From assembly GCA_019057795.1 (NCBI GenBank), contig JAHLWS010000069.1:32001-96000 (forward strand): a DNA stretch of 64,000 nucleotides. Reading direction: 5' to 3'. Below are positions 15,678 through 32,850 of this stretch, piece by piece; within the stretch, counting starts at the first letter, position 1; each line of letters starts with the position of its first letter. The notes beneath the pieces were generated by a model. It saw nothing but the letters and a program-made list of their open reading frames with translations. It searched no databases and was not told the origin of the DNA. Origin of the DNA: Promethearchaeota archaeon. GTDB lineage: Archaea; Asgardarchaeota; Lokiarchaeia; Sigyniarchaeales; SOKP01. Made by a program: the position numbers and the translations under genes.

Positions 15678-17168
15678 TCACGCTTTTTCTACACGAAATA
15701 TATGGCTATTCCAACCCTCTAATTCGATATATAATCCATTTTCACGAAGATCTTTTCCTTTATAAATATACTCGTTCCTTGTAAGCAGATCTGTAAACTT
15801 CCAGTTAAATAGTCCAAAATCTATATCTTCTATTATTAAATGCGCTTTGGAAGCAATTAAACTATAATTGACAACAATTAATAGTCGATCCTTATCTGTC
15901 CACCACTGATACGAAATAATATTATTGAAAGAGTTATCACTTGAACTGATAGGTTTAACTTTACATAAAGACCATTTTGCATTATCAAACTCTCTTCCGG
16001 GAATAATTTCCAACAAATTGTCATAGAATTCCATCAGAGCTAAGTCATCTTCTTCTGTCGTCGCCCTTCCTAATTGAACAGGTAATTTTATTTCGTATCC
16101 TCGTGTTTGCCCTTCAAAAATCAATCGAGCGCCAGGTAGTGTTGATGTAATAACAACAGCAGCTTTTGAAGCTTCAGTTCCGAACACCGTTATAGCTCTT
16201 GGTTCATCGTGATTTTCAATAAAGCGGAGCAATTTTCTTTGGTAATCCAAATCTGCTTTAAGATGTTCGTTTACTCTCTGAGCATTATCATTAGCTAAGC
16301 GTTCGTATAGTTTCTTATCATAACAATAATCAAATCCTTGCTGCATCAATTCCCATTCCATATCCCAATACACTTCAGCTATAAACTTAAAATCGGGGAA
16401 TTCATTTTTTACAGCAACAATAATTTCTTCCCAAAATTCTTTTTCAAGAGCTGGACCTACTTTTACCTCCCATGTGCGGTTAAAAACGCTATTAGTCATT
16501 AACATTGCCATATCACATCTAACACCATCACATTGTTGGGCGATCGAAAGTAGCGTGTGAATGGCTTTTGAACGAGCTTCAGGCGAAAACGCATTGATTT
16601 GCACGGTGTCGGTCCATGCAGGAAAATTGGGATCGCGACCATGAGCATAAACAATATCTCCTAAAGAGAAAAAGTCGTATGGTTTAGCTATTAAATCATC
16701 TATAGTTCCTTTTATAAAAACATCTGATTTTTCAAGCGTCCATAGATGGTCTACTGAAACATGGTTGGGAACATAATCTAAAAGTAGCAATATTCCATGG
16801 TCAGCTAATTCTTTGCGGAAGAAATCTAAACCATCTGAACCCCCAAGGTGAGAACTAACGTGATAATAATATACTGAATATGGCGAACCAATAACATCAT
16901 CGGTATTAAAATAATGTAACGCCTTACGATATTCTTCTTGTAAACCTTCGTGGTTAATCGCAATTTCTCTTCCTATAGGACTTCTTTCCCATACTCCCAT
17001 TAACCAAATTGCATCATAAGGAGTTAATTCTTGGTCAATTAATTCAACAGGTAATGTATCTAACTTAATTGAATGGCCATATATCTCAGATAAATTGTTT
17101 AACCATGGCCACGTGTTAATTTCGTAAATTTTAGGGTGTTTAGGCCATATAATCTTTTTTATTGACAT
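15678..17168 (-). CDS. GH13 alpha-amylase family glycoside hydrolase
   Basis: DYVPNH, nucleophile GVRCDMA, acid/base AEVYW and ENHDE. Confidence 0.9.
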   Translation of the reverse strand: MSIKKIIWPKHPKIYEINTWPWLNNLSEIYGHSIKLDTLPVELIDQELTPYDAIWLMGVWERSPIGREIAINHEGLQEEYRKALHYFNTDDVIGSPYSVYYYHVSSHLGGSDGLDFFRKELADHGILLLLDYVPNHVSVDHLWTLEKSDVFIKGTIDDLIAKPYDFFSLGDIVYAHGRDPNFPAWTDTVQINAFSPEARSKAIHTLLSIAQQCDGVRCDMAMLMTNSVFNRTWEVKVGPALEKEFWEEIIVAVKNEFPDFKFIAEVYWDMEWELMQQGFDYCYDKKLYERLANDNAQRVNEHLKADLDYQRKLLRFIENHDEPRAITVFGTEASKAAVVITSTLPGARLIFEGQTRGYEIKLPVQLGRATTEEDDLALMEFYDNLLEIIPGREFDNAKWSLCKVKPISSSDNSFNNIISYQWWTDKDRLLIVVNYSLIASKAHLIIEDIDFGLFNWKFTDLLTRNEYIYKGKDLRENGLYIELEGWNSHIFRVEKA

Positions 17169-17389
17169 GATTAATTTAGGGTCGATTCATTCTTAGTATT
17201 AATGAATATTAAATATGCCTCCTAATATAAAAAATAAATCCTATTTTAGTTTCAAATTTCGAACAGAAGTTAACGAGTAATTTATTGTTAAGTTATTTTT
17301 TGTCAACTTTTTTAAAAATAAATATATATAAATTATTAGACAATCATATCTATAATATCTATAATAAAGAAAAATAAAAGAAGTAAGTA

Positions 17390-17953
17390 TTGAAAATGAG
17401 TGAAGAGAAAGAAGCAATTCGAAAGCTTATAATGCTGATTTCAGATTTACGTGCTAAAGACGAGGAGCGTTACGAGGCTCACGTTAATTTTATGAACGAA
17501 ACCATTAAAATGATTAGTGCAATTGAGTCTCAGATGAATAAACACTGGTCTACTGTGTTAGAATCCCTTAAGGAATTAAATGAGGACATAAACAATAATT
17601 TAGACAGTTTACTTACAGGAATAAACCCGAAAGGTCTAAGAGAAACGTCCAAATCGCTTCAAGAAATCATGGATACAATGAACAAGAGCGTTCAATCGAT
17701 GAATTTGGAAAAGGTTTTAAGCGAACTTAAAGTTTTAAAAGCTTCAACAATACCAATAACAGCAATTCCTGGGGCGGTTTCTGTAGGACAGCAACCAGAA
17801 CAAATTACAGCTAATCTTAATCTGAACCCTCCGGGGGGTGCAGTAGCTTCACAAGAACCTGAAGTATACGGATTTGTCCCCGGAAAAAAGAAGAAGAAAG
17901 AAGACGAAAATGACGAGCCGCACCTTATGAAGCCAAGTGACCTTTTTAAGTAA
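17390..17953 (+). CDS. Hypothetical protein (helical/coiled-coil N-terminus, disordered C-terminus)
   Basis: 187-aa ORF in its own intergenic space, likely starting at ATG 17396. No family recognised. Confidence 0.7.
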   Translation: MKMSEEKEAIRKLIMLISDLRAKDEERYEAHVNFMNETIKMISAIESQMNKHWSTVLESLKELNEDINNNLDSLLTGINPKGLRETSKSLQEIMDTMNKSVQSMNLEKVLSELKVLKASTIPITAIPGAVSVGQQPEQITANLNLNPPGGAVASQEPEVYGFVPGKKKKKEDENDEPHLMKPSDLFK

Positions 17954-18025
17954 TTTGGGAGATTTACTGGCTCAAAAAATCAATATAAGTCCACCTGCTG
18001 CCCGGGGATTAATTACTTAATCAAT

Positions 18026-19384
18026 CTAATACATATTTTTCAATCTTTCCATAAAAGGTTCTACACTTTTTTTGACTCCGTTTACATTTTCGCCTATTTT
18101 TTTGAAATTAATAACTATTGATGGTATATTTAATTCCGTTTTCATTTTATCCTTTAATGTATCGTATGTTTTTGATATTGAAGGGCACCCAAATACCTGG
18201 TTGAAGATTAAACCATCTATGTTCATTCTTTTTGCTGCTGCTAAGTAGGAATTCGTCATATTTTCTCTGTTGCATCCAATTCCTTTTGTTGATGCGTTCA
18301 ATAGAAAACGAGAGTAATCTTCAATGGGGTCGGAATTTTTTGATAAAGGGATTTCTTCCAATAAACCTAGTAAGTCCCAATCAGCATAAATTATCCTTCC
18401 ACCCAATTTATAAATAATTTCGTGTACTTCTGGTTCCCACCCTTGGTACATTGGGGCAAATAACACCCTTGGCATGTGAGAAACATCCATTCCTATACCT
18501 TTTTTGATCCTCTCTCTCATTTCTTTAACTAATTGACTCATATTATTTAAGTATCTTTGAGCGTTAGAATTATAATCTTGAAATGTTATTGTTAGAAGCG
18601 CTAGAATTTCCGCAAAGGATGCAGGATTACAAGGATAGAAATTTGAAGTACTGATCTCATAAAGGATTGTTTTATAAAATCGCTTTACCTGGTTTCCTAT
18701 TCGGAATTGTTTTTGTAAGCTACTATCTGTGACAAAATTTCCTGTTATACCCTCTAAATCACTGATCCCCCTTTTTACACTGTTTATTATTTGTTCTAGT
18801 GCCTTATTTTCATTTTCTAGATTTTTAGGAGGAACCTCAATCGTTATTTGATTAGGGACTGTTGTTTTTAACGATTCAGAAAACTTATTCCATTCACCAC
18901 AACGCATAGCAAAGTTAAGATTAGCGTCTAAATTTTTGCCCTTTGATAAATGCATTCCATAAAGAGCGTTAATTCCATAACATAATTCAGAGGGAACGCC
19001 ATTATTAACACCTAATTCGTACATTTCATTATATTTACTATGAATCGAGGTAATAACATCTTCAAGAATTTTATCGACTATTTTTAATATATCAAATTGA
19101 CGAGCGAAATCTAGAAATTTTGATGTTAAACTCCAACCTAATACACTAGTGGCGGAATTTAACATTGCTAAGTACTTATTAACTTCAAACGATTCCATTC
19201 GAATTGGAAAAACTGGAATCCCTCCAACGGCAAAAGCTAAATCTGGGAAACCTAAGGCAACTGAAATTAATTTTTTCTTTTCTTTAAACTTTTTCTTTTT
19301 TAGATACTCTCTACCTGTTAAAAAATTATAAGCCATTTTAAGAACAGACGTGAAACTTACGACATCGTCAGCGTATATACTCGT
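18026..19384 (-). CDS. 2-hydroxyacyl-CoA dehydratase subunit (HgdA/B-like), paralogue 2; probable ACG start at 19384 (first ATG at 19336)
   Basis: Clear paralogue of 25275..26630 with the three Cys ligand motifs ELCYG, MRCGE and FGCPS. The 16 codons upstream of the ATG align with the paralogue's N-terminus. Confidence 0.8.
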   Translation of the reverse strand, partial: TSIYADDVVSFTSVLKMAYNFLTGREYLKKKKFKEKKKLISVALGFPDLAFAVGGIPVFPIRMESFEVNKYLAMLNSATSVLGWSLTSKFLDFARQFDILKIVDKILEDVITSIHSKYNEMYELGVNNGVPSELCYGINALYGMHLSKGKNLDANLNFAMRCGEWNKFSESLKTTVPNQITIEVPPKNLENENKALEQIINSVKRGISDLEGITGNFVTDSSLQKQFRIGNQVKRFYKTILYEISTSNFYPCNPASFAEILALLTITFQDYNSNAQRYLNNMSQLVKEMRERIKKGIGMDVSHMPRVLFAPMYQGWEPEVHEIIYKLGGRIIYADWDLLGLLEEIPLSKNSDPIEDYSRFLLNASTKGIGCNRENMTNSYLAAAKRMNIDGLIFNQVFGCPSISKTYDTLKDKMKTELNIPSIVINFKKIGENVNGVKKSVEPFMERLKNMY

Positions 19385-19486
19385 TTTAAAACCAACTCTA
19401 GCTGCTATTATAAAATAAGAATTTTCTACAACTATAATTTAAAAATAGTCATCTAATTGTAATAAAATTTATGAGGTAAAGTATAA

Positions 19487-19503
19487 GGGTTTATGATTTT
19501 ATT
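19487..19503. repeat. 17-bp direct repeat A, copy 1 (GGGTTTATGATTTTATT)
   Basis: Identical to 21934..21950. Confidence 0.85.
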
Positions 19504-19630
19504 TGAACATCTTCATAAAAACTCCAAGATGAGTTTTTATTTCTTCGATTTTTTCGCCAATTTTATTATATATCATTGTTATTGATGGTATTTCAACTAC
19601 TCGACATAATTTTTCTTTTAATATAACATA
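19499..19630 (-). pseudogene. Isolated 3' fragment of a 2-hydroxyacyl-CoA dehydratase subunit gene
   Basis: Manual translation gives YVILKEKLCRVVEIPSITMIYNKIGEKIEEIKTHLGVFMKMFK*. It aligns ungapped (24/43 identical) with the C-terminus of 25275..26630, and an in-frame stop lies shortly upstream. Confidence 0.85.
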
Positions 19631-19777
19631 TACTCTTAGAAGTTTTATTCTAATACTCGAATATTATCTCGGATTTGAAAATATTTATATTTCATGGTTT
19701 ACTTCTTGAAATTCGAATTTTTCCGCAAACATAAGAGTTAAGCAAGATTTAATTGTATATAAAATGTATTATAAACC

Positions 19778-19797
19778 AAGAAAATGAAAATATGAAA
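19778..19797. repeat. 20-bp direct repeat B, copy 1 (AAGAAAATGAAAATATGAAA)
   Basis: Identical to 21980..21999. Confidence 0.8.
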
Positions 19798-19810
19798 AAA
19801 TCTGATCAAG

Positions 19811-20797
19811 ATGACTAAGGAAAAAATAAAAATTTGCGTACTTGAGAAAAAACGAGGAAATTTTTCAATACAAGAGAAATTTGCTAAAAACGAAAATATT
19901 ATCGATACAACTAATCAAGAAGTAGAACATCATTTAAGTGCTTTAAATGAAGCGGGTTATGATGTAAAAATATTAAAATGGAATGACAATATAATTTATG
20001 ATTTAAAAAGTCTTGACATTGATATCGTATTTAATATATCCAGCATTGTTGAAACAGCTATTTTAGAAGAATTAGAGATACCTTATGTAGGGTCTGATGT
20101 TTTTGGATGCGTTATAGCAACCGATAAGGTTCTTACTAAAGACTTGTGGTTTAAAAAAGGATTACCAACATCACCTTATATTTTAGCAAGATCAAAAGAG
20201 GATTGTGAAATTTTTAAGAAAAACAAGCCATTTGATTATCCTTTATTTATAAAACCCTCTCAAGGGAGAGGAAGTTCTGGAATCGATGAATCCTCACTTA
20301 TCTGTTCATATAACGAATTAATTAAAGGAGTTGAAAAAAGATTAAACACAATAAATCAACCTGTTCTTATTGAAAAATTTTTAAAAGGTAGGGAAATAAC
20401 ATGTGGAATTATTGGTAATGGAAATCAGATTAAAGCCTTACCTTTATTAGAAATAATACACAAGGAAAAGGAAAAATTCTTGACATTTAATAAAAAAGAG
20501 TTAGATGACGATCAATTCCAATGCCCTGCAAAATTAACTCCGAAACAGTCTAAAGAATTACAGAAATTAGCTATTTCAGCATTTCAAGCGATAAATCTTA
20601 GAGATTATGGTCGTGTAGACATGATCTTATCAGAAGAAGGTCCTTTTTTATTAGAAATAAATTGTTTTGCAGGATTAATGTGTACACCAAAAGATAAACC
20701 TCATAGTTACATGGGCTTTATGGCAATTGCAGAAAACAAAAAAAGTAGTGAATTCTTAGATGAAATTATAAAAGAAGCATTAAAAAGAATTGGATAA
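19811..20797 (+). CDS. ATP-grasp ligase, D-Ala-D-Ala ligase-like
   Basis: IPYVGS, DK, IKPSQGRGSSG, EKFLKGREITCG, GRVD and LEINCFAGL. It lacks the Ddl N-terminal GGxSxE motif and the YDYxAKY loop. Confidence 0.85.
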   Translation: MTKEKIKICVLEKKRGNFSIQEKFAKNENIIDTTNQEVEHHLSALNEAGYDVKILKWNDNIIYDLKSLDIDIVFNISSIVETAILEELEIPYVGSDVFGCVIATDKVLTKDLWFKKGLPTSPYILARSKEDCEIFKKNKPFDYPLFIKPSQGRGSSGIDESSLICSYNELIKGVEKRLNTINQPVLIEKFLKGREITCGIIGNGNQIKALPLLEIIHKEKEKFLTFNKKELDDDQFQCPAKLTPKQSKELQKLAISAFQAINLRDYGRVDMILSEEGPFLLEINCFAGLMCTPKDKPHSYMGFMAIAENKKSSEFLDEIIKEALKRIG

Positions 20798-20839
20798 CTT
20801 TCGTTCAAACTAAAAACAAATTGTATTATGTGAATTAAA

Positions 20840-21925
20840 ATGCCAATACTTGAAATAAATTTGAGAAAAATTAGACATAACGCAAAATTATTAAAGAATC
20901 TTTTAACTCAGCGAAATGTATCTATTATTGGAATTACAAAACTTGTCTTAGGAAACCCTACTATTGCAATGACGTTGGTTCAAGGAGGAATAGAGTATTT
21001 AGGAGATTCACGAATTAACAATATTATTAAAATGAAAAAAAATAATATTAGAGCTCAATTTGTTTTAATTCGTATTCCAAGCATTACTGAAATTCCTCTT
21101 GTTGTTAAATACGCAAATTATAGCCTAAATTCAGAATTAAAGACCATAAGAATGCTTTCAAATGAAGCCGTTAAACAAAAAAAGATACATAATATAATTC
21201 TAATGGTAGATATGGGAGATTTAAGAGAAGGAATAAATATATTCAATATTGAATTTTTTGTCGAAGAGATTTTAAAACTAAAAAATATAAATTTAAGTGG
21301 AATTGGTACAAATTTCAAATGTTTTGGTGGTATCATCCCGACAGATGAAAATATGAATGAATTTTCAAAATTAGTCTTTAGGATCAAGGATAAATTTGAA
21401 TTGGAATTAGAATTTGTTTCAGGAGGAAATTCTGCAAATTTTAACTGGTTTAAATCGTGTAAAAACATTGGTGAAATAAATAATTTTAGAATTGGGGAAG
21501 CCATGTTTCTAGGAAAAGAAACGATAAATTATGAACCAATTCCAAATCTATATACAGACGCTTTTAAGTTAATAACAGAGATTGTTGAGTTAAAACAAAG
21601 ATCTGTAATCCCCAAAGGGATTATTGTATCAAATGCATTTGGGGAACGTGTCCAAACTTACCATAAAAAAATTAACAACGGTAAAAAAAGCGATATAATT
21701 AGAACACAAGCACTTTTAAATATAGGTAGACAAGATATTGCAGTAAAAGGATTAAATCCGAAAGAAAGTATTAATATTCTTGGAGCTTCAAGCGACTACT
21801 TAGTTGTAGATATAAGAGATAATCAATTTCAGATTGGACAAAAATTGCATTTTGATTTAAATTATGAAGCTCTTTTAAGAGCAATGACTAGTCCCTATAT
21901 CCATAAGAAATTTATCGATATTTAA
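20840..21925 (+). CDS. PLP fold-type III amino-acid racemase, ornithine racemase (Orr)/YhfX-like
   Basis: GITK (PLP Lys), GDSR, SLNSE, MVDMGDLREG, GTNFKCFGG, SGGNS, RIGEA, GRQD and GASSD. Confidence 0.85.
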   Translation: MPILEINLRKIRHNAKLLKNLLTQRNVSIIGITKLVLGNPTIAMTLVQGGIEYLGDSRINNIIKMKKNNIRAQFVLIRIPSITEIPLVVKYANYSLNSELKTIRMLSNEAVKQKKIHNIILMVDMGDLREGINIFNIEFFVEEILKLKNINLSGIGTNFKCFGGIIPTDENMNEFSKLVFRIKDKFELELEFVSGGNSANFNWFKSCKNIGEINNFRIGEAMFLGKETINYEPIPNLYTDAFKLITEIVELKQRSVIPKGIIVSNAFGERVQTYHKKINNGKKSDIIRTQALLNIGRQDIAVKGLNPKESINILGASSDYLVVDIRDNQFQIGQKLHFDLNYEALLRAMTSPYIHKKFIDI

Positions 21926-21933
21926 ATTTACAT

Positions 21934-21999
21934 GGGTTTATGATTTTATTCTGAATGGTAACGAAACACATTTTAGAAGAAGAAAATGAAAATATGAAA
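21934..21999. repeat. Direct repeats A (21934..21950) and B (21980..21999), copy 2
   Basis: Exact matches to 19487..19503 and 19778..19797, in the same order and orientation. Confidence 0.8.
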
Positions 22000-22335
22000 T
22001 TTATTTTTATTACAGTAAGGATAATTTTTAGTTTATTAAAAAAAGTTCTAAAAAACATCTACATAATTGTAGAATTAAAATTTGCCTCTTAATCTATATA
22101 AATGACGCAAAATTTTAAATGTAATAATTGATATAATAAGATAGGAAGAATTTTGCATTGAAACTTAAAACGGTATTAATTATCTAAATATTAGAATATA
22201 TTTTTGTATCCAATAAATTAGGGATATAATTAGAGCAACTGGTTATTCACTGTTATTATTCTATCGAATTTTAATAATCACTACTCTGCAATCCAGTAAG
22301 TTTCTTTAATGCTTATTTCAAATATTGTTTGAAGG

Positions 22336-24090
22336 GTGTTTTATTCAATAATGATGACTAACTCTTATTTAGAGAAAAAAAAAAATAGAAGAATTTTAAC
22401 AGCATGTATAGGACAATGCGTGCATGTAGCAGGTACATATAATTTCATTCAAATTTCAAAACAGTTAGGTTATAATAATATATTTTTAGGACCTGCTACC
22501 CCTATTTCAATTGTTATCGATCAAATTAAAAAGTATGACCCTAACATTGTAGGGCTAAGTTATCGTTTAACGGCAGACACTGTTAGACCTTTACTAAATG
22601 AATTTTTTAAAAATTTTATAAAATTAGAGAAAAAACCAAAAAAATTATTTTTTGCTGGAACACCTGAAGTAGTTGAGATTGCAAGAAAATATGAAGGGTT
22701 CGATGAATATTTTGTTGGAGGGGAATCAAAATTTGAATTAATTTCTATCTTGAGAAATGAGAAAGTAAAATCAGAAAGTAAAACAGAAATCCCTATGGAC
22801 ATTATTTCTCGAATACAATGGAAGAAACCTTATCCTGTAATTAGAGCGCACTTTGGATTACCTAATTTCAATGAAACAATAGAAGGAATAAAAAAAATTG
22901 CTAAAGCTAAAGTCTTAGATGTTATTTCAATTGCGCCCGATCAAAATACGCAAGCAAATTATTTCCACCCTGAAAATCAAGATAAAGAATTATCTGGAGC
23001 GGGCGGGGTTCCTTTGCGCACTCAGCAAGATTTCGAAAAGCTCCATCAGGCAAGATTAACCGGAAACTATCCGATGTTAAGGGTATATGCTGGAACACGC
23101 GATTTCATTAAATTAGGAAAATTGTATCGAGATACAATTCAAAATGCTTGGGCAGCAATTCCTATTTTTTGGTTTAATCAAATGGATAGTAGGGGGCCTT
23201 TAACTTTAAAAGAATCGATTAAACAGCATCTAAACGCAATAAAGTGGCACGGAAAGCACAATATTCCCGTTGAAGTAAACGATCCACATCATTGGAGCCT
23301 TCGAGACGCTCCTGATGCTATAGCTGTTGCTGATATGTATTTATGTGGAATAATAGCCAAAAAATTAGGCGTCAAAAATTTTATAGCACAATATATGTTT
23401 AATACACCTCCATCAAGTTCACTTGATATGGACTTAGCAAAAATTCTCGCTAAAGATGAGTTACTTCAAACGCTAGCCAATGAGAACTTTACGATAATTA
23501 AGCAAGTTCGAACGGGAATAACAAGTTTCCCATTAGATTTGGATAAAGCAAAAGGACAGCTTGCTACAGCGACATTTGTTCAATTAGCTATTAGACCAGA
23601 CATTGTTCATGTAGTTAGTTCTTCTGAAGCTAGTCATGCAGCTCGTCCAGAAAATGTAATAGAAAGTTGTAAAATAGTGGATCAAGTCATAGATAAAGTT
23701 TATTCCTGTAAAATTAATATTATAGATAAAAAAATTGAGGAAAGGAAAGAAGAATTAATAAGACAAGCCAAATGGATAGTTAATTTAATACCTCATCTAA
23801 CAAAAAATGAAGAAGAAACGATAAGTCCATACACCAATTATGAAGTTTTAAGTCGACTCGTAAAATATGGTATATTTGATGCCCCACATTTAAAAAACAA
23901 TAAATTTGCGTTGGGTAAAATTAAAACAAAAGTAATTAACGGTGCTTGTTATTCGTGGAATGAATCTCAGCAAAAAATTTACGATGAAATTGAAAGAATA
24001 AAAGACATTATCTTTAATAGCCCATTTAAAAATTTTTCTGATTCATTACAACAAAAAGAAAAATCCATCACAAAGGTGATGGATGAATGA
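22336..24090 (+). CDS. Cobalamin-binding domain protein with a large C-terminal catalytic (probably TIM-barrel) domain; B12 enzyme of unknown function
   Basis: Base-off/His-on B12 domain: GQCVHVAG (DxHxxG variant), FLG, VGLSYRL and FAG. There is no radical-SAM CxxxCxxC. Likely start is ATG 22351. Confidence 0.8.
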   Translation: MFYSIMMTNSYLEKKKNRRILTACIGQCVHVAGTYNFIQISKQLGYNNIFLGPATPISIVIDQIKKYDPNIVGLSYRLTADTVRPLLNEFFKNFIKLEKKPKKLFFAGTPEVVEIARKYEGFDEYFVGGESKFELISILRNEKVKSESKTEIPMDIISRIQWKKPYPVIRAHFGLPNFNETIEGIKKIAKAKVLDVISIAPDQNTQANYFHPENQDKELSGAGGVPLRTQQDFEKLHQARLTGNYPMLRVYAGTRDFIKLGKLYRDTIQNAWAAIPIFWFNQMDSRGPLTLKESIKQHLNAIKWHGKHNIPVEVNDPHHWSLRDAPDAIAVADMYLCGIIAKKLGVKNFIAQYMFNTPPSSSLDMDLAKILAKDELLQTLANENFTIIKQVRTGITSFPLDLDKAKGQLATATFVQLAIRPDIVHVVSSSEASHAARPENVIESCKIVDQVIDKVYSCKINIIDKKIEERKEELIRQAKWIVNLIPHLTKNEEETISPYTNYEVLSRLVKYGIFDAPHLKNNKFALGKIKTKVINGACYSWNESQQKIYDEIERIKDIIFNSPFKNFSDSLQQKEKSITKVMDE

Positions 24091-25193
24091 GGTTCTGCGT
24101 TATTGGAGCAGGAAATGGTGGCCGAGCGTTTGCGGCATATTTATCATCAGAAGGATATCCTGTAAATCTATATAATCGCTCATATACCAGAATTTATGAC
24201 ATCAAAAAGAAAGGAGGAATAAAAGCAAAAGGGAAGTTAAAAGGCTTTTTCCCAATTGATCTGATTACACAAAATCTAAATTTGGCAGTTAAGAATGTAG
24301 ATGTTATTTTAATAGTAACTCCTGCTTCAGCACATAAAAGTATTGCAAAGAACATTGCACATTTTTTAACAAACGATCAGATAATATTGTTGAATCCAGG
24401 TAGAATTTTTGGAGCTGTAGAGTTTAGAAGTATAATAGAAAAGGAAAGAGGGAATCTCCCTATTTTTATTGCTGAAACCCAAACATTACTTTTTACATCA
24501 AGACAATTGAAAAAAAATGAAGTTCAAATTCTTACAATTAAGGATTCTGTTAGTTTTTCTGCTTTTCCAGAGAAGCATACGTTTTTCATTAGTGATACAT
24601 TGAGAGATGTTTTTCCCCAAATGAATCCTATTGATAATTATCTGCAAGTTACATTAAATAACATGGGGATGTTATTGCATCCAACTCTCTCATTATTGAA
24701 TGCTAGTGCTATGGATTATGGAAGAAAGTTCAATTTTTATGCACAAGGGGCATCTACACATACTTGTGAAATTCTTGAGGCTCTTCAAATGGAATTCAGA
24801 AAGATTTTTGAAAAGTTAAATTTAAAGCAAATAAATTTTTGTGAATGGGTGGAGAAATCTTATGGATTTAAAGCAAACAATATCTATAATGCTATTCAAA
24901 AAATAGAGGCATATAAAAATATTGTTGCTCCAAAAGAATTAATAACTAGATATTTCACTGAGGATGTTCCAACTGGACTTGTACCTATGGCGTCATTAGG
25001 AGAATTCTTAGAAATTTCTACACCAATAATTGATTCTATAATAAATTTATCTTCGATTTTATGTGGAATTGATTTTAGAAAAGAGGGAAGAAGCATTATG
25101 AACTTAAATTTAGCTAGCCATATAACTAAACAAATGAAAGGAGAAGATATGTTGGGAATACTAGAAAGTCAAAAAACACAAATCGATGCTTAA
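24087..25193 (+). CDS. NAD/NADP opine (octopine/nopaline) dehydrogenase family protein
   Basis: Rossmann motif VIGAGNGG, LNPGR, AETQTL, NMGMLLHP and RYFTEDVPTGLVP. It overlaps the B12 gene by ATGA. Confidence 0.9.
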   Translation: MRFCVIGAGNGGRAFAAYLSSEGYPVNLYNRSYTRIYDIKKKGGIKAKGKLKGFFPIDLITQNLNLAVKNVDVILIVTPASAHKSIAKNIAHFLTNDQIILLNPGRIFGAVEFRSIIEKERGNLPIFIAETQTLLFTSRQLKKNEVQILTIKDSVSFSAFPEKHTFFISDTLRDVFPQMNPIDNYLQVTLNNMGMLLHPTLSLLNASAMDYGRKFNFYAQGASTHTCEILEALQMEFRKIFEKLNLKQINFCEWVEKSYGFKANNIYNAIQKIEAYKNIVAPKELITRYFTEDVPTGLVPMASLGEFLEISTPIIDSIINLSSILCGIDFRKEGRSIMNLNLASHITKQMKGEDMLGILESQKTQIDA

Positions 25194-25274
25194 ATTGTTT
25201 TAATTTATGAAGATATTATTAAGCTTTAATTTCTTCTATATTAGGAGATTATATCTAAAATCTCTATTTTTTAA

Positions 25275-26630
25275 TTACTTAAACATTTCCATGAATGCAC
25301 CGAGCCTTGTCTTCATTTGTTCGATGTTCTCTCCAATTTTATTAAAAGTAATTGCAGTTGTTGGTATCTCAAGCTCGCGTCTTACTTTCTCTCTCAGCAT
25401 TGTATAACAATTTGAAATAGAATGACATCCAAACAATTGAAAAAATATAAGACCATCGGCATTTAATTTTTTTGCCACTCTCAAATATGAGTCAGTTAAC
25501 GTGTCGTTATCACACCCAATCCCTGATACTGTTGCATTTAAAAGAAATCGAGCGTATTCTTCAACAGGATTTAAATGATTAGCCACGGGAATTTCCTCTG
25601 AGAATTTTATTACTTCCCAGTCAGCATAAATCGCTCTCCCGCCTAGTTCATATATAATATCGTGGGTTTTTGGTTCCCATCCTCCGAATATTGGCGTTAC
25701 AAAAATACGCGGCATTTTAGACACATCCATTCCAATTCCCTTTCTTATTCTTTCCCGCATTTCGTCTACGAGTGAAATTAAATTATCCCTATATCGTATC
25801 GAATTAGAATTATAGTCTTGAAATGTAAGGCTTAATAACGCCAGAATTTCACTAAATGTTGCTGGATTACACGGATAAAAATCAGAAGCACTAATATCGT
25901 AGATTATTGTTTTATAAGATTTTTTTACTTGATTACTAATTTTAAAATGCTCTCTCAATTGATTATCCGTTATTGTGTTGCCAGTTAAATTCTCCAATTC
26001 TCTTATGGCGTTCGATACATTATCAGTTATAATTTCCAAAGCATTTCCAATATTTCTGGGAGGAATATCAACCCATATTTGCTTTGGGTCTTGATTGATT
26101 ATTTTTAAGGATTCCATATATTTATTATACGCGCTACATCGAATTGTAACGTTGAGACATGCGTCTAAATTACGACCTTTGGAAATATGCGCACCAACTA
26201 AACTTTTCAACCCGTAACAGAAGTCACTTGAAATTCCATTCTCAATTCCAAGATCATACATTTCGTTGTATTTTTTGTTAATCGTGTCAATTACATCCTC
26301 AATAATTCCGTCAACAATTTTACTGATTTCAGATATTCCAAGGTTCTTAACAAAACTTAAGAAGCTAGAAACATTTTTCCAGCCAAAAATACTAGACGCG
26401 GAGCCTAAGTACGCGAGGTATTTACTAATTTCAAAAGTGTGCATCCTTATCGGAAACACTGGTACAGCACCTGCCGCGAAAGCTAGATCTGAAAATGCTA
26501 AGGATACTCCAACTAGCTTTTTTTTCTCTCGGAACTTTTTCCTTTTTAGATACTCTCTGCCTGTTAAAAGATTATAAGCCATTTTTAATACAGAACTAAA
26601 AGTTATTATTTCCTCAGCAATTAAACTCAT
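25275..26630 (-). CDS. 2-hydroxyacyl-CoA dehydratase subunit (HgdA/B-like), paralogue 1
   Basis: Cys motifs DFCYG, IRCSA and DGLIFFQLFGCH; in an operon with a second subunit and an activase. Confidence 0.8.
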   Translation of the reverse strand: MSLIAEEIITFSSVLKMAYNLLTGREYLKRKKFREKKKLVGVSLAFSDLAFAAGAVPVFPIRMHTFEISKYLAYLGSASSIFGWKNVSSFLSFVKNLGISEISKIVDGIIEDVIDTINKKYNEMYDLGIENGISSDFCYGLKSLVGAHISKGRNLDACLNVTIRCSAYNKYMESLKIINQDPKQIWVDIPPRNIGNALEIITDNVSNAIRELENLTGNTITDNQLREHFKISNQVKKSYKTIIYDISASDFYPCNPATFSEILALLSLTFQDYNSNSIRYRDNLISLVDEMRERIRKGIGMDVSKMPRIFVTPIFGGWEPKTHDIIYELGGRAIYADWEVIKFSEEIPVANHLNPVEEYARFLLNATVSGIGCDNDTLTDSYLRVAKKLNADGLIFFQLFGCHSISNCYTMLREKVRRELEIPTTAITFNKIGENIEQMKTRLGAFMEMFK

Positions 26631-27766
26631 TTCATCATCTCCAAATACGCTTCTATTCTTGTTGAGAGCTGCCCTCGATTAGCTCGAGAATAGTCTCGCT
26701 CTAAATTCAATACTTGTATTCCTTTTTCTTGTAACTCATTTTTCAAGAAAGAAGACATTAACGATATGTGGTCGCAAAATTTAATAATATGATTGAAAAC
26801 GCCTAATTTTTTACCAGTTTTTTTTGTATAGTTCTTAGAATAATTATCAATCAAAGAAACTTTTTGTTGCAAGAAGTTAGGTACTGAATGGTCTCCACAC
26901 GTATTATTTTTAAATCTCAGCACCAATAAATCTAAAGGATTTTTGTTTGAATTTATCGAGTCATCATCTATAACTTGTGAATAATAGTGATTTCCAATCC
27001 ATGTATCGAAATAAACAATATTTCCCCCTCCTTCTTCGATTAAATCAATTAGGTTATCATTAATGAAGATAGAACATCCTGTAAATAAAATATCTTTAGA
27101 TAAACCAAGGTTTTGAGGTGGATTGTTTTTTACTTCTTCAATGTACTTTTCTAAATCAGGTAGGAATGTTGGACCATATAATATTGCTTTTTGAATTATA
27201 TTTAATTTTTCTGAGCCCAAAATCTCTAAATCATTAACTTGCGATATTTTTTTTTTAAAATCATTATACTTCTTAATACTCTCAAATAATTTTTCGTCAG
27301 AAATTTTTTTACCTATAATATCTTCAAGCTTCTCCTTTAAATTTTGTAGCTCTATCTTGAAATATTTTAAACTACTTTCATTAGTCATATATGGGACATA
27401 AAAATTTAAACGAGAGATATTGAAATATTTAGTTATTATTTCTGAAGCACAAATATCTGATACGCAGTGGTTTGAAACAATAAAATAATCCACCAAATCT
27501 AAAAATCTGTAGTTATTTGGTTTAGTAGAAAATAATCCAATACATGATTGAGCAAATGCACATGTAGATGGAGGTAAAAAATCGTGACTAGCTTCCATTA
27601 ACTCGTCATCCCCTCCAAACATCATCCTTAAAGGAAAGAAACCCGCTGCATCTATCAACTCTTCGGGGATATTGTCGTGAGCTAAAAAAGCAACGATTTT
27701 AACACCTTCTTGCTTTTTTTCTTTAAGAAATAACGAAAACTCTGGGAGAAGAATGGGATCGGTCAT
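26627..27766 (-). CDS. 2-hydroxyacyl-CoA dehydratase / benzoyl-CoA reductase-type subunit
   Basis: IPEELIDAAGFFP, STCAF, NHCVSD, KFCD, LERDY and GQLSTRIEAYLEM. Confidence 0.85.
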   Translation of the reverse strand: MTDPILLPEFSLFLKEKKQEGVKIVAFLAHDNIPEELIDAAGFFPLRMMFGGDDELMEASHDFLPPSTCAFAQSCIGLFSTKPNNYRFLDLVDYFIVSNHCVSDICASEIITKYFNISRLNFYVPYMTNESSLKYFKIELQNLKEKLEDIIGKKISDEKLFESIKKYNDFKKKISQVNDLEILGSEKLNIIQKAILYGPTFLPDLEKYIEEVKNNPPQNLGLSKDILFTGCSIFINDNLIDLIEEGGGNIVYFDTWIGNHYYSQVIDDDSINSNKNPLDLLVLRFKNNTCGDHSVPNFLQQKVSLIDNYSKNYTKKTGKKLGVFNHIIKFCDHISLMSSFLKNELQEKGIQVLNLERDYSRANRGQLSTRIEAYLEMMK

Positions 27767-27880
27767 AATATTAGCTTGAGTAGTATGAAATTATCTATCT
27801 GAAAAGACTTATTTCCTTAAAAAAGTTTCCCGATTTAAAATATAGATAAAAATATTAAAATTAGCTGAAATAAAATTAAT

Positions 27881-28660
27881 CTAATTAGAATTGTTTTCTT
27901 GAGCTATTAAAGCGGCACCAATAGCTCCCGTGAGTTGAGGAAATTCGGGTGTTTCGATGCCATATCCAAGTTCATCTTCTAAAAATTTTTTTACAGCAGG
28001 GTTTTTGGCGACTCCACCACAGAAAATAAGTTTAGGTCCTACTCCAATACGTTTTGCCATTCCGGCAACTCTTCTCGCAATTGATTTATGTATGCCGCTT
28101 GCGATCTCTTCTTTAGAAGCCCCTCTCGCGAATAAACTTATTACTTCGCTTTCTGCGAAAACTGTACATGTTGAACTTATTGAAGCCGATTTGTTAGATC
28201 GTAAAGCTAAATCTCCAAATTGATCAATAGGAACTTCCAACGCGTGAGCCATGACTTCCAAAAACCGGCCCGTTCCTGCTGCGCATTTGTCATTCATTTG
28301 AAAGTCAATAACATTTCCAGTTTTTGCAGACATTACAATTGCTTTACTATCTTGACCCCCAATATCTATTACGGAATTAGCATCTGGAAAGAAATATTGC
28401 ACCCCCCTAGCGTGAGCTGTAATTTCAGTCACTCGATCGTCTGCAAAGTCTACTGTATTTCTTCCGTAACCGGTGCTCATAATGTGTACATCTTCCTTCT
28501 TCAAACTGTGTTTATTTAATATTTCATTAAATAAATTATGACCAATTCTTTTGAAATCATATGTGGATCTTTCTGTTCGGTGATCAATTAACTTCCTATC
28601 GTTAATAAGCACTATCTTTGTTGCCAAAGAACCAATATCTATACCAATAAAATTCTTCAA
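27881..28660 (-). CDS. hgdC: CoA-substrate-specific enzyme activase (HgdC/BadF/BcrA-D family ASKHA ATPase, 4Fe-4S)
   Basis: GIDIGS, TGYGR, EITAHARG, DIGGQDSK, MNDKCAAGTGRFLE, STCTVFAESE and GGVAKN. Confidence 0.9.
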   Translation of the reverse strand: MKNFIGIDIGSLATKIVLINDRKLIDHRTERSTYDFKRIGHNLFNEILNKHSLKKEDVHIMSTGYGRNTVDFADDRVTEITAHARGVQYFFPDANSVIDIGGQDSKAIVMSAKTGNVIDFQMNDKCAAGTGRFLEVMAHALEVPIDQFGDLALRSNKSASISSTCTVFAESEVISLFARGASKEEIASGIHKSIARRVAGMAKRIGVGPKLIFCGGVAKNPAVKKFLEDELGYGIETPEFPQLTGAIGAALIAQENNSN

Positions 28661-28781
28661 TTTAAATCATTTAAAAATATAATTTTATATCTTAAAATTT
28701 TTTAAAAAATTTTAAATTTTCGATAAAACCAAATAATTACTTCCTTTATTCATTACAAATTTATTTTAGTTGAAGGCTAAA

Positions 28782-29651
28782 TTAAGTAGGAATTACTAAT
28801 TGTAGCAATAGAGAAACTAGTAATGTCGTAACACCCGCTGTAACTAAATGAATTGCGTACTTAGCATGTCCCCCGCCAGAGATTTTTCCTAAAAATATAC
28901 CTAAATAAATCAATATAGCTACCAAAACTCCATAAGAAACTAAAAAATGAAATATGGATAAAGTATCTCCAAAGAAAAACGGAATTAATGGAAGGATCGA
29001 TCCTAAAACAGGAGCGCCCCCGTCGACTAAAGACGCGACTATGGTGGCAAATTTTTCTGATCGTTCAATTATTGATTTATTATTTTTTCTTATTTTTTTC
29101 TTTGGTTTTCCCTTTAAAGAAAAAAATCTTTTGTTATTAGTATGATTTAAATTTATGGGAGTTACCATTGCTTTTTGAATCTCTTGTTCTTCTAAAATTT
29201 CTTTCTCATCATTACTTAAGCCTTTTTTCTCTCTATTATTCGGTTTTTCTTCCTTTTCTTCTTCAAAAATTACCATCTCTTTTTTTAGATCAATCATTTT
29301 TTTCTTTCTTTCGGCTTCTTCAGAGAGAAAGGCGCCCCATAAGCCACTAATACCAATTGCTAAAGCAGTGGAAAAACCAGTTATTATAATGATAGTTGAA
29401 CTTAAAGTTTGAGCTGTATTTAAAAGAAAATTTGGAAGAAATATGATGAAACTTCCGCTAACTATTCCCGCACAAGTTAAGGCTCCGTCAAAGGCGTTAT
29501 TAAAAAATTTACGGCGAACTATTATGCCTAAATTAGACAGTTCAGAATATTTACGCCATTTCTTGGTTAAATCTTTTAAACCCATTTTATTTAAAAAAAC
29601 CCCATTTTTCGCATTTTGTACATACAATAAATCTCTTATCTTTAATAACAC
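28782..29651 (-). CDS. VIT1/CCC1-like membrane protein with a charged cytoplasmic insert
   Basis: RRKFFNNAFDGALT, SGLWGAFLSEEAER and PLIPFF with hydrophobic helices. The true start is probably the internal MGLK (about 29585). Confidence 0.7.
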   Translation of the reverse strand: MLLKIRDLLYVQNAKNGVFLNKMGLKDLTKKWRKYSELSNLGIIVRRKFFNNAFDGALTCAGIVSGSFIIFLPNFLLNTAQTLSSTIIIITGFSTALAIGISGLWGAFLSEEAERKKKMIDLKKEMVIFEEEKEEKPNNREKKGLSNDEKEILEEQEIQKAMVTPINLNHTNNKRFFSLKGKPKKKIRKNNKSIIERSEKFATIVASLVDGGAPVLGSILPLIPFFFGDTLSIFHFLVSYGVLVAILIYLGIFLGKISGGGHAKYAIHLVTAGVTTLLVSLLLQLVIPT

Positions 29652-29813
29652 ATACTTATATTTTAAATTTAAGGGGGAATCTATTATAATCTTTGTAATT
29701 ATTTGATGCTGTTAATCTTTTTGAATTAAATTTCAGTAAAAACTGATGATTTTTATTTATTTAATCATATAATATTCATAGAATATTAAAAATTATGGAA
29801 TTGAATACTAATT

Positions 29814-30455
29814 TTGACAAACAGAAAAATCAAAGAAGAAATAATTTCATTACTCATAGATCATGTTCGGATTATTTACTCTATTATTAGCGACATGGGC
29901 GTGTATTATACCACCTGGGCAGAAGACTTTGAGGCTAATAAGAAAAGTTTAGAAAAGAAAAAAAGTAAAATGCAATTATCAGAAGAAGAAGGTGACGAGC
30001 TAAAAATTCGCTTAATACAGAACTTTTCAGAGGCTGAAGCTTTCAATCTCGGAGATTATGTAGCATTAATGTTGAAGATGGATAATGTTATTAATTATCC
30101 CCTCGAATTTGTCGATATGTTAGCAAAAATTAACTTAACTGGTAAAAGTGCAAATAAGATTAAGAAGAAATATCATAAGTTAATAAACCAAATTATGGAA
30201 ATGGCTGGTATCTTGAAAATAGCTATAAAAAACTTAAGGGATAATCAGGATAATGTCTTTGATAACACAACTACAATTCATGAACTTGAATCTAAAATTG
30301 ACAGAACTTATAGGCAATTTCTTGAGTTTTTATATTCTAATGTTGAAGACATAAGAATTTTACTACGTATCAGGGATAGTATTGTGTTACTGGAGCAGTT
30401 GGCAGATCGTATCCACGATATTGCTGATTTAATGAGAGTTTTGCTGTATCAATAA
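29814..30455 (+). CDS. DUF47 / PhoU-like phosphate transport regulator
   Basis: Duplicated helical motifs EEEGDELK and ELESKID, plus EQLADRIHDIAD. Confidence 0.8.
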   Translation: MTNRKIKEEIISLLIDHVRIIYSIISDMGVYYTTWAEDFEANKKSLEKKKSKMQLSEEEGDELKIRLIQNFSEAEAFNLGDYVALMLKMDNVINYPLEFVDMLAKINLTGKSANKIKKKYHKLINQIMEMAGILKIAIKNLRDNQDNVFDNTTTIHELESKIDRTYRQFLEFLYSNVEDIRILLRIRDSIVLLEQLADRIHDIADLMRVLLYQ

Positions 30456-30653: not shown

Positions 30654-31025
30654 GTGAATACTATGAACGGAAAAATGAAATTTTATTCATTGTTAGGATT
30701 TTTCCAATTAGTGCTTATATTAATTGTGTTTTTTAGTGTAGATGGAATTATCACTATGGTTGCAGCACAAACAGAGAGTTTTGATTACTATAATTCTCCA
30801 ACAGCGGCGATTTTAGCGATTTCAGCAGCAATCTCCCTTTCAGCAGCAGTATTAGGAAGTGCAATCGCTTTAAAAACAGTAGGTACAGCAGCAATATCAT
30901 CTTTATCCGAAAGAGAAGAAAGTTTTTTTAAAGCATTCTTAGTTGTTGCATTGTGTGAGGCTTTAGCCGTATATGGTTTAATTGTTGCCATCCTCCTCTG
31001 GACAAAAATCCCCACGCCAGGATAA
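30654..31025 (+). CDS. atpK: A/V-type ATPase proteolipid subunit K (c)
   Basis: Single hairpin with the conserved Glu in VALCEALAVYG, preceded by an N-terminal hydrophobic segment. Confidence 0.9.
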   Translation: MNTMNGKMKFYSLLGFFQLVLILIVFFSVDGIITMVAAQTESFDYYNSPTAAILAISAAISLSAAVLGSAIALKTVGTAAISSLSEREESFFKAFLVVALCEALAVYGLIVAILLWTKIPTPG

Positions 31026-31065
31026 TCTTGATTTACATTTAAAATCGTTAAGAAGGTGTTTTTTT

Positions 31066-32127
31066 ACGAGTGAAATTATTCCGTCTTATGCTTATACATA
31101 TATTAAAATCGATTATTTAAAACTATTAATAATTGATGATGACACTTTACTAAAACTTAAAAGAATCTACGATATTGATGACTTCATGGAATCTATTAGA
31201 CCTTACTATCCTAATTTAGATTTCAAAGAAAATACTATTGAAGATATTGAAGTAGCTCTTAATAATAATTATATTAAGCTAATTGGTAAAATTTTACATT
31301 ATTCCCCCCAAAACATGAGAATATTCTTAAGAAATTATCTCATGAAATTTGAAATACAAAATCTCAAACAAATAATCATCAGTTTAATTTTAGGAATTAA
31401 TCTAGAAGAAAAAAGAAAATACATTAATTTTTTAGTTGAAGAATATTTAGATAACACGGAATTCATTGAAGAATTGCTTAAATTTACTTCTTTAGACGAA
31501 ATACAATTATTTCTTAAAAGAACTAAATACAATATAGCTATTAGAGAAGGGATTCTTTACTTTAAGAAAAATAAAGAAATTTTTATTCTGGAAGCTTTTT
31601 TAGATCAATTATATTATAAGCAACTTAATGCTCAACTGGAACGTTTAAATAAAAAAGAGAAAACAATGATATCGTTGTTTGTGAAATATAAAACTGAAAT
31701 TTATAATATAAATGTGATTTATAGGGGAATAAAAAATAAAATTGAAGGAAAATTATTATCTCAATTTCTTGTAAATAATTATTTATTCCTAAATGAAAGT
31801 AAATTAGAACAATTGTTAAATCTTGATAATGTTGATGAATTTATATCAATTATTAAAGAATATTTGAAGAATATTAAGGAAACAAAACCATTTTTTATCA
31901 AGCTAAAAATTAATCAAAAACACTTAATTAGGTCAATTGAACAATTTTATATAACTTATTATTTTAAGAAATTTAAGATTAAAATTGACGATATTGATTT
32001 TTTCACCATTTACAAAATTTTAGAAATACTTATAAAAAAAGGGGGAGAAATCCGATTTATTATATTACCCCAGGTAATTAAGATCCTTCACTATAAGTTT
32101 AAAGCGTTAAAAACGCAGAAATTTTAA
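31066..32127 (+). CDS. atpC: A/V-type ATPase subunit C (d); probable ACG start
   Basis: N-terminal YAY motif, FEIQNLK, LEAFLDQLYY and EIYNINVIYRG; operon position fits. The ORF-track TTG start at 30982 lies inside atpK. Confidence 0.8.
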   Translation, partial: TSEIIPSYAYTYIKIDYLKLLIIDDDTLLKLKRIYDIDDFMESIRPYYPNLDFKENTIEDIEVALNNNYIKLIGKILHYSPQNMRIFLRNYLMKFEIQNLKQIIISLILGINLEEKRKYINFLVEEYLDNTEFIEELLKFTSLDEIQLFLKRTKYNIAIREGILYFKKNKEIFILEAFLDQLYYKQLNAQLERLNKKEKTMISLFVKYKTEIYNINVIYRGIKNKIEGKLLSQFLVNNYLFLNESKLEQLLNLDNVDEFISIIKEYLKNIKETKPFFIKLKINQKHLIRSIEQFYITYYFKKFKIKIDDIDFFTIYKILEILIKKGGEIRFIILPQVIKILHYKFKALKTQKF

Positions 32128-32187
32128 AGTTAATTATGAAATTATGAAATAAAATATTTAATAGATAATAATATGTGAGTTGTAATA

Positions 32188-32499
32188 ATGCCAATTTTTA
32201 AATGGGTTGAAGAAATCGAAAATATTTATGAAAATTTGATTGAAAACGCTAAAAAAGAAAGTTTAGAAGACATTGAGAAATTAAAAGCTTCATTAGAAAA
32301 AAATATGGAAAAAAAACTTCATAATAATCAAGAAATTATTAATTCTGCCTTAAAAACACTTTCAAAAGAAATTGATGAAAAATCATTAAAATTCGGAGAG
32401 TCAATATCAAAATTATATAGCAAAATAGAAAAAAATTATTATGAAAATAAGGAAGGATTAATGAATTTAATATTTGAGAAATTAGGATTTGATTTTTAA
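32188..32499 (+). CDS. A/V-type ATPase subunit H/G (peripheral stalk)
   Basis: 103-aa Glu/Lys-rich helix (IENAKKES) within the ATPase operon. Confidence 0.65.
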   Translation: MPIFKWVEEIENIYENLIENAKKESLEDIEKLKASLEKNMEKKLHNNQEIINSALKTLSKEIDEKSLKFGESISKLYSKIEKNYYENKEGLMNLIFEKLGFDF

Positions 32500-32816: not shown

Positions 32817-32850
32817 AAAAAGATGATCGGCCATTAGTGAAGGAAATGAC

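Follow-up and report, generated by a model that had tools for sequence, protein, structure and literature searches.

What reaction is catalyzed by a presumed cobalamin protein that carries a cysteine in its ligand loop and is encoded in tandem with an opine dehydrogenase? This question is raised by an open reading frame at 22336..24090 (+) of a 64,000-nucleotide stretch of contig JAHLWS010000069.1, hereafter the window, from a Promethearchaeota archaeon of the Asgard group. The reading frame opens with a GTG codon and specifies 584 residues; the true start is probably the ATG ATG at 22351/22354, since homologues begin there. The first-pass annotation had described a single-chain B12 protein with a set of distinctive motifs, no radical-SAM triad and no motif of methylmalonyl-CoA mutase or of methionine synthase (MetH), and on all these points it was borne out. 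The motifs GQCVHVAG (residues 26-33, nucleotides 22411-22434, with Cys for Asp), RAHFG (170-174), DVISIAPDQ (195-203), EVNDPHHWSLRDAPD (313-327) and QYMFNTP (352-358) are each present in the reading frame. Cysteines are confined to positions 24, 28, 337, 445, 458 and 538, and CxxxCxxC is absent from the 584 residues, which rules out a radical-SAM enzyme. A Pfam scan found neither a methylmalonyl-CoA mutase nor a MetH catalytic domain. As argued below, the protein is probably an adenosylcobalamin (AdoCbl)-dependent enzyme of the glutamate mutase type, which performs a 1,2-rearrangement on another substrate and is coupled to the opine dehydrogenase.

The larger, C-terminal part of the protein had been left without a catalytic assignment. 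From an alignment of 58 sequences, AlphaFold2 gave a confident model (predicted local distance difference test score 91.8, predicted TM-score 0.88), which places a (beta/alpha)8, or TIM, barrel followed by a C-terminal helical region at residues 149-558 (22780..24009, +). Foldseek ranked glutamate mutase epsilon first (6h9e_B and 1cb7_B, E 2e-17, 433 alignment columns, 17-18% identity), and VIA-align superposed 374-380 residues of the same chains on model residues 149-558 with a Z-score of 29.1 and a root-mean-square deviation (rmsd) of 3.0-3.4. The comparison with glutamate mutase and with the lysine and ornithine aminomutases, which had been proposed as a check, thus put the epsilon subunit (GlmE) in first place; acyl-CoA mutases scored 17-21. 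In agreement with the model, the only Pfam families returned at E<=0.01 were Met_asp_mut_E (PF06368) and B12-binding (PF02310), the former on residues 325-490 with 30.4 bits, above its cut-off of 26.6, and hhalign matched the family to a GlmE profile of 15 sequences with a probability of 75-81%. As modelled, the C-terminal domain is an AdoCbl-isomerase barrel, closest to GlmE, and the whole protein is a sigma-epsilon fusion. A canonical glutamate mutase was ruled out: the protein scores 21.2 bits against TIGR01503, the NCBIfam equivalog for glutamate mutase E, whose cut-off is 390, the arginine claw is replaced (see below), and the host genome, which is 100% complete in 87 contigs, encodes neither methylaspartate ammonia-lyase (PF07476) nor MutL.

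Upstream of the barrel, residues 17-141 (22384..22758, +) form a predicted cobalamin-binding domain of the Rossmann type. Its family profile matched the solved corrinoid domains 4jgi (E 4.9e-8) and 2yxb (8.5e-7), as well as 7xcn and MetH B12 domains, and the N-terminal domain of the model aligned with the corrinoid-binding chain 4jgi_B over 115 residues (VIA Z 15.2, rmsd 2.2). The Asp of the DxHxxG motif in 4jgi, 2yxb and 7xcn falls on Cys28 of the ligand loop (22411..22434, +), and their His falls on His30, the presumed lower axial cobalt ligand. Ser75, 45 residues past His30, and the G/A-G108 pair align with further B12 motifs of the solved domains, at the canonical spacing of MetH and MutS. 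Conservation was counted over 87 distinct full-length homologues from the fetched loci, one of which is gapped at the ligand-loop columns, leaving 86 informative rows. Residue 28 is Cys in 82 of these 86 and Asp in four, and none of the 86 lacks His30 or Gly33; His is lost in the two most divergent members of the family. A census over 50%-identity cluster representatives found G-x-C-[VI]-H-x-x-G in archaeal and bacterial members all through the main family. By contrast, a sister group of 600-635-residue proteins, with a named member from Rikenellaceae (Bacteroidota), keeps the canonical D-x-H-x-x-G. Because C-x-H runs through the main family while the sister group retains DxHxxG, Cys28 is, judging from these alignments, a derived and fixed substitute for Asp and not an alignment artefact.

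If the fold is that of GlmE, is the substrate also glutamate? The pocket was mapped onto GlmE by hhalign and secondary-structure register, not by residue-level superposition on 1CCW, with the GlmE of E. coli O157:H7 Sakai (L011:29863-31308, minus strand) as reference and the numbering tied to the Clostridium cochlearium structure. In C. cochlearium GlmE, Arg66, Arg100 and Arg149 form a claw that binds both glutamate carboxylates; these arginines are invariant in 15/15 GlmE sequences. At low identity, they map to His172, Gln206 and Tyr251 of the window protein, and Arg170 and Arg249 lie on the same strands, two residues upstream of His172 and Tyr251. Asp88 and Asp95 (E. coli GlmE numbering) correspond to Asp195 and Asp202, both of which are listed among the invariant barrel residues, and Glu330, the adenosyl-ribose-binding residue of GlmE, aligns with Glu431, conserved in 87/87 homologues. 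The catalytic Glu171 maps to Ala273 in one hhalign run and to the invariant Asp284 in others. Of the 87 homologues, 86-87 share R170, H172, Q206, R249, Y251, D284, R286, E313, R323, D327, R392, H425 and E431, and about 25 residues of the barrel do not vary between archaea and bacteria. Our reading of this pattern is that the adenosyl-binding apparatus has been kept and the glutamate-binding apparatus replaced. Since the three claw positions are His, Gln and Tyr, the substrate would not be glutamate bound as in GlmE; the remaining invariant Arg and Asp side chains point to an amino acid that either is charged or carries an N-carboxyalkyl group (an opine).

We then considered the partner gene, to which the first-pass annotation had already linked the B12 protein. 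The start of the downstream gene (24087..25193, +; 368 residues) overlaps the stop codon of the B12 gene by 4 nt (ATGA), and the two are translationally coupled. Its product belongs to the opine dehydrogenase family: it combines an N-terminal NAD(P)-binding Rossmann domain with the helical Octopine_DH domain, scores 133 bits against PF02317 (octopine/nopaline dehydrogenase family), and aligns over residues 3-344 (E 2e-76) with N-(1-D-carboxyethyl)-L-norvaline dehydrogenase (CENDH) of Arthrobacter sp. 1C (1BG6), a full-length homology that includes the motifs containing the catalytic His and Arg. In contrast to 1BG6, the gene in the window is genetically locked to a B12 enzyme. Indeed, an opine dehydrogenase gene lies within 6 kb of the mutase gene in 78/88 homologous loci and abuts or overlaps it in 61, and at least 6 of the 10 misses are contig ends beside the mutase gene. 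The loci with the pair span Asgard archaea, Bacillota, Chloroflexota and others; the mutase gene comes first in the main Asgard clade and the dehydrogenase gene first in most bacterial loci. Because the pairing survives this change of gene order, functional coupling is well supported, and the proposed link to an opine dehydrogenase holds. In the window, a 410-bp intergenic region of 22% G+C (21926..22335), presumed to be the promoter region of the operon, parts the B12 gene from the genes upstream, so that the B12 gene and the dehydrogenase gene make up their own two-gene unit. This pair probably forms an undescribed amino-acid pathway.

In the mechanism that we infer, the Rossmann domain would bind cobalamin base-off/His-on via His30, with Cys28, in place of Asp, hydrogen-bonding His30, and the TIM barrel would hold the adenosyl group, through Glu431, and the substrate. 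Homolysis of the Co-C bond would yield a 5'-deoxyadenosyl radical that takes a hydrogen from the substrate, and the hydrogen would be returned after the 1,2-rearrangement. The mutase would act in obligate partnership with the overlapping CENDH-type dehydrogenase, which may either use the mutase product or, by joining an amine to a 2-oxo acid in an NAD(P)H-dependent reductive condensation, supply the mutase with its substrate; the dehydrogenase reaction may also run in reverse. Amide formation by ATP-grasp ligases or AsnB-type amidotransferases may often extend the pathway, and in bacteria the operon would commonly be switched by cyclic di-AMP (c-di-AMP), in keeping with osmotic or K+ homeostasis or envelope metabolism. 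Of this scheme, the fold, the motifs with their conservation, the pairing of the genes and the riboswitch are observed, and the cofactor, the radical chemistry, the class of substrate and the role in the cell are inferred from them.

The closest known system is glutamate mutase GlmS/GlmE (MutS/MutE, EC 5.4.99.1) of C. cochlearium (1CB7, 1CCW, 1I9C, 6H9E). Both consist of a Rossmann B12 domain and a barrel of the same fold, both keep the xHxxG, Ser and Gly-Gly motifs and have counterparts of Asp88/Asp95 and Glu330, and a MutL-type domain is fused to some members of the present family. These MutL-fused paralogues (L092:3908-7588, protein P0142, and P0147) are 1,226-1,266 residues long and combine a C-x-H B12 domain, a GlmE-like barrel and PF13941. 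By contrast, the window protein unites both subunits in one chain, has Cys for the Asp of DxHxxG and has lost the claw, and its partner is an opine dehydrogenase, in a genome that lacks methylaspartate ammonia-lyase and MutL.

How, then, is the pair controlled? Rfam models were run on 42 loci that fall outside the main Asgard clade, 40 of them from bacteria and 2 from Heimdallarchaeota; 22 of the 42 carry the c-di-AMP riboswitch RF00379, with 84-117 bits against a gathering score of 38. The riboswitch directly precedes the first operon gene, in the same orientation, whether this gene encodes the dehydrogenase, an ATP-grasp protein or the mutase. It occurs in nearly all Bacillota outside Halanaerobiales and in one Chloroflexota locus. 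When c-di-AMP is high, RF00379 switches off the genes under its control, which serve K+ and osmolyte transport and the cell wall; these known targets are the ground for a tentative assignment of the pair to osmotic or envelope physiology. A c-di-AMP-controlled stress solute is our preferred guess for the pathway product, though one that is more likely wrong than right. In the window, no RNA was found upstream of the B12 gene (Rfam, 17000-30000, E<=1). A GntR+TrkA_C regulator, BusR-like and potentially c-di-AMP-binding, lies directly upstream of a 42%-identical pair in a metagenomic locus (L006:1320-1985); as a single case among 91 loci, it was ruled out as a regular neighbour. At L064, in Caldanaerobacter subterraneus, the pair is under riboswitch control, and downstream of it come genes for an AsnB-type amidotransferase and a D-Ala-D-Ala carboxypeptidase, in this order (L064:9694-11196, L064:11219-12472). 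One family member, P0139, bears a Peptidase_M15-like tail; these features hint at a cell-wall connection in bacteria.

Several observations weigh against a glutamate-mutase-type enzyme with a c-di-AMP-linked role. The Pfam B12-binding match (PF02310, residues 19-81) reaches 19.8 bits, below its cut-off of 32.1. The protein lacks the canonical Asp of DxHxxG, with which known enzymes tune their axial His. The barrels of pyridoxal phosphate (PLP)-dependent aminomutases score nearly as high as GlmE (Z 25-28), and the residue mapping onto GlmE rests on a low-identity profile alignment that is unstable around Glu171. The complete host genome has no PF13941 MutL-like reactivase, and the evidence from the MutL fusions is indirect: P0142 is flanked by genes for oligopeptide ABC-transporter ATPases and an AAT/peptidase-C45-like protein, without an opine dehydrogenase. 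The accessory genes (major facilitator superfamily (MFS) transporter, 2-hydroxyacyl-CoA-dehydratase-like (HGD-D), AsnB, ATP-grasp) vary among loci. Finally, none of the eight Asgard loci scanned has a riboswitch, so that the regulatory clue comes from homologues of about 45% identity.

The accessory genes raise the question of whether the pair acts in synthesis or in breakdown. In a catabolic role, with the enzyme chemistry unchanged, a secondary amine of the opine type or some unusual amino acid would serve as fermentation substrate; the dehydrogenase would split it oxidatively, with the mutase feeding or following this step. The hosts are anaerobic amino-acid and peptide fermenters, genes for 2-oxoacid:ferredoxin oxidoreductase lie upstream of the pair in [Clostridium] ultunense, and CENDH was reportedly found in a strain isolated on synthetic opines. 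An MFS transporter gene directly follows the dehydrogenase gene in about 8 Asgard loci, and HGD-D genes flank the pair in 14 Asgard loci, including the window; a functional link is possible. In the window, three HGD-D/double-cubane-like paralogues and an activase lie beside the pair (18026-19336, 25275-26630, 26627-27766 and 27881-28660, all on the minus strand); across the 14 loci, the inserts in this arrangement vary (MFS, GATase, GGACT, GCS2). Against a catabolic role, amide-forming enzymes are found in or beside the operon. Ddl-like ATP-grasp genes occur near the pair in 13 loci, within the operon in L007, L069 and L078, and an ATP-grasp domain is fused to the mutase in P0124. AsnB-type amidotransferase genes likewise occur near the pair in 13 loci and lie between both core genes in L051 and L077. 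Furthermore, the genes of the Bacteroidota sister group are found in loci for polysaccharide biosynthesis, next to two ATP-grasp genes and genes for Octopine_DH and a DegT aminotransferase, and a riboswitch that silences its operon when c-di-AMP is high is better suited to the making or import of a compound under osmotic demand than to catabolism. On balance, we consider a catabolic role unlikely. At L008/L009:5800-13000, the 620-residue DxHxxG protein of Rikenellaceae is encoded beside aldo-keto reductase, PGA_cap, Octopine_DH, DegT and two ATP-grasp genes, and it may carry out a B12-dependent step in the synthesis of a glycan substituent.

We next asked whether the barrel could instead belong to a PLP- and AdoCbl-dependent aminomutase of the ornithine 4,5- or lysine 5,6- type, moving an amino group within a basic amino acid, with the partner as the NAD-dependent dehydrogenase that follows it in ornithine and lysine fermentation. 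The known enzymes (lysine 5,6-aminomutase, 1XRS and 8T0V; ornithine 4,5-aminomutase, 3KOW and 3KP1) share the AdoCbl TIM barrel and Rossmann domains, in their pathways the next enzyme is likewise an NAD-dependent C-N dehydrogenase, and their structures score close to the 29.1 of GlmE: VIA Z 28.1, 27.0 and 25.9 for lysine 5,6-aminomutase alpha chains and 24.7-25.4 for ornithine 4,5-aminomutase, with OraE at 25.4. The loss of the cationic claw residues of GlmE would fit as well, as would a PLP racemase gene upstream in the window (20840..21925, +), which is Orr-like (NF040742, 370 bits, below the cut-off of 480). However, no aminomutase family was returned by Pfam at E<=0.01, and the domains come in the opposite order from those of OraE. 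The PLP lysine of lysine and ornithine aminomutases (Lys144-beta/Lys629), which lies about 11 residues past the His ligand, has no counterpart in a register checked roughly against the solved B12 domains: position 41, which is His30+11, is Ala in 79 and Ser in 6 of 87 homologues and Lys in none, and position 42 is variable. Nor is the racemase conserved beside the pair. Together with a Ddl-like ATP-grasp ligase gene (19811..20797, +), like it a possible accessory gene and of a kind that recurs beside the pair elsewhere, the racemase gene lies next to the B12 gene only in the window and in the 95%-identical locus L014, which rules it out as a core pathway member. A PLP-dependent mechanism for the B12 protein is unlikely from these residues, and an aminomutase identity as a whole strikes us as distinctly improbable.

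Another explanation is that the exchange of Asp for Cys marks a protein that does not use AdoCbl: it would have another cofactor or play a non-catalytic part, for instance in sensing or carrying corrinoids or in scaffolding the dehydrogenase under redox control. The sub-threshold Pfam B12-binding score, the absent Asp, the loss of His in the two most divergent members and the lack of MutL in the host genome would be in line with this view. By contrast, about 25 barrel residues, the counterpart of the Glu that binds the adenosyl ribose among them, do not vary between archaea and bacteria, the B12 motifs retain their His, Gly, Ser and Gly at canonical spacing, and MutL fusions occur within the family; all this argues for an active AdoCbl enzyme, and we regard a protein without AdoCbl as very unlikely. 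The host genome encodes a CobA/BtuR adenosyltransferase, three methylmalonyl-CoA-mutase-type large subunits and 20 B12-binding domains; no PduO-type transferase was found in it.

A corrinoid methyltransferase or methionine synthase, suggested by the source annotations and by the resemblance of the B12 domain to MetH and corrinoid proteins, is scarcely credible, given that homocysteine, folate and AdoMet domains are absent (Pfam, E<=0.01), that the barrel matches AdoCbl isomerases at Z 17-29 versus about 15 for pterin-binding barrels, and that the gene context lacks methyltransferase partners; with no MetH-type domain in the Pfam scan, it was ruled out. NCBI names many family members 'methionine synthase', which is probably a propagated mis-annotation because the MetH catalytic domain is absent. 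The first-pass annotation had proposed an uncharacterised class of AdoCbl mutase, aminomutase or methyltransferase. Taken together, these results retain the uncharacterised cobalamin family, with an AdoCbl isomerase as its most likely activity, disfavour the methyltransferase, since no MetH-type domain is present and some paralogues are fused to MutL, and weaken the PLP-aminomutase, with no Lys at His+11.

Two known pathways work in a manner reminiscent of the proposed one, as analogies only. In pyrrolysine synthesis, PylB, PylC and PylD combine a radical carbon-skeleton mutase for an amino acid, a Ddl-like ATP-grasp ligase and an NAD-dependent C=N/C-N dehydrogenase; they differ from the present system in that PylB is a radical-SAM and not a B12 enzyme and PylD belongs to another family. 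A B12-based substitute for PylB was ruled out, as the host genome has no PylB, PylC, PylD or PylS above cut-off. The ATP-grasp protein of the window (19811..20797) has a weak PylC match of 25.7 bits. A contig from another Asgard (Promethearchaeota) metagenome-assembled genome (MAG) carries the Rfam element PYLIS_3 (the mttB pyrrolysine insertion element; L031:15217-15314, 49.9 bits against 38), which suggests that a pyrrolysine-containing trimethylamine methyltransferase is encoded there. In the second pathway, that of the osmolyte N-acetylglutaminylglutamine amide (NAGGN), an AsnB-type amidotransferase (AsnO) and an ATP-grasp peptide ligase (Ngg) make a charge-neutralised compatible solute from amino acids under osmotic control. 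The likeness drawn here is one of logic, and the NAGGN pathway has neither a mutase nor an opine dehydrogenase.

How widespread is the family? An exhaustive search of 1.84 billion cluster representatives returned 643 at E<=1e-3 and 132 at E<=1e-30, and a word-indexed search found over 3,700 close sequences, most of them in Asgard MAGs. Of 201 Asgard genomes sampled, 78 encode a member, among them 38/85 high-quality genomes and 10/16 genomes of the same genus; canonical MutE was found in none of the 201. Further members, 42-50% identical, came from a scan of species-representative genomes. Among cultured Bacillota, these occur in Caldanaerobacter subterraneus, Thermoanaerobacter thermocopriae, Thermoanaerobacterium butyriciformans, [Clostridium] ultunense and Fervidicola ferrireducens. 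MAGs add Tepidanaerobacter, Halanaerobiales, Chloroflexota, Bipolaricaulota, Poribacteria, one Thermococci MAG and Heimdallarchaeota. A quick maximum-likelihood tree placed the window protein in an Asgard clade (SH-aLRT 100, 12 rows), apart from the bacterial clade (SH-aLRT 85). Because the Asgard clade is fully supported and distinct from the bacterial one, recent transfer is not indicated. In the full-text literature searched, mostly outside subscription journals, nothing was found on this family or on a link between B12 and opine dehydrogenases. Elsewhere in the window, a 916-residue MEDS-PAS-histidine kinase is encoded upstream (12654-15404, minus strand), and downstream (30982-36777, plus strand) lie the genes for subunits C, A and B, a portion of an A/V-type ATP synthase operon; neither has an evident tie to the pair.

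What would an AdoCbl isomerase coupled to an opine dehydrogenase mean? About a dozen AdoCbl-dependent reactions are known to us, each new one having taught new radical chemistry, and we know of no link between opine dehydrogenases and B12 chemistry. The isomerase fold is itself known; what is new here is the ligand loop, the pocket and the partner. The family is noteworthy for its wide spread, from Asgard archaea to cultured thermophilic Bacillota, for its very strongly conserved putative active site and for a natural Asp-to-Cys change at a position where mutation is reported to cripple glutamate mutase. It is quite possible, if still short of an even chance, that it represents a new class of AdoCbl isomerases with a Cys-His-Co arrangement, catalyzing an undescribed rearrangement of an amino acid or opine, and that with its obligate dehydrogenase, and often with an amide-forming enzyme of the ATP-grasp or AsnB type, it makes a novel small molecule common to Asgard archaea and anaerobic bacteria, either a c-di-AMP-controlled stress solute or a building block of the envelope. 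The presence of RF00379 in the cultivable Caldanaerobacter, Thermoanaerobacter, Tepidanaerobacter and [Clostridium] ultunense makes the function directly testable, and the link to c-di-AMP hints at an undescribed osmotic or envelope physiology. Recognition of the family would also correct a systematic 'methionine synthase' mis-annotation in the Asgard genomes that are used to reconstruct the metabolism of the archaeal ancestor of eukaryotes.

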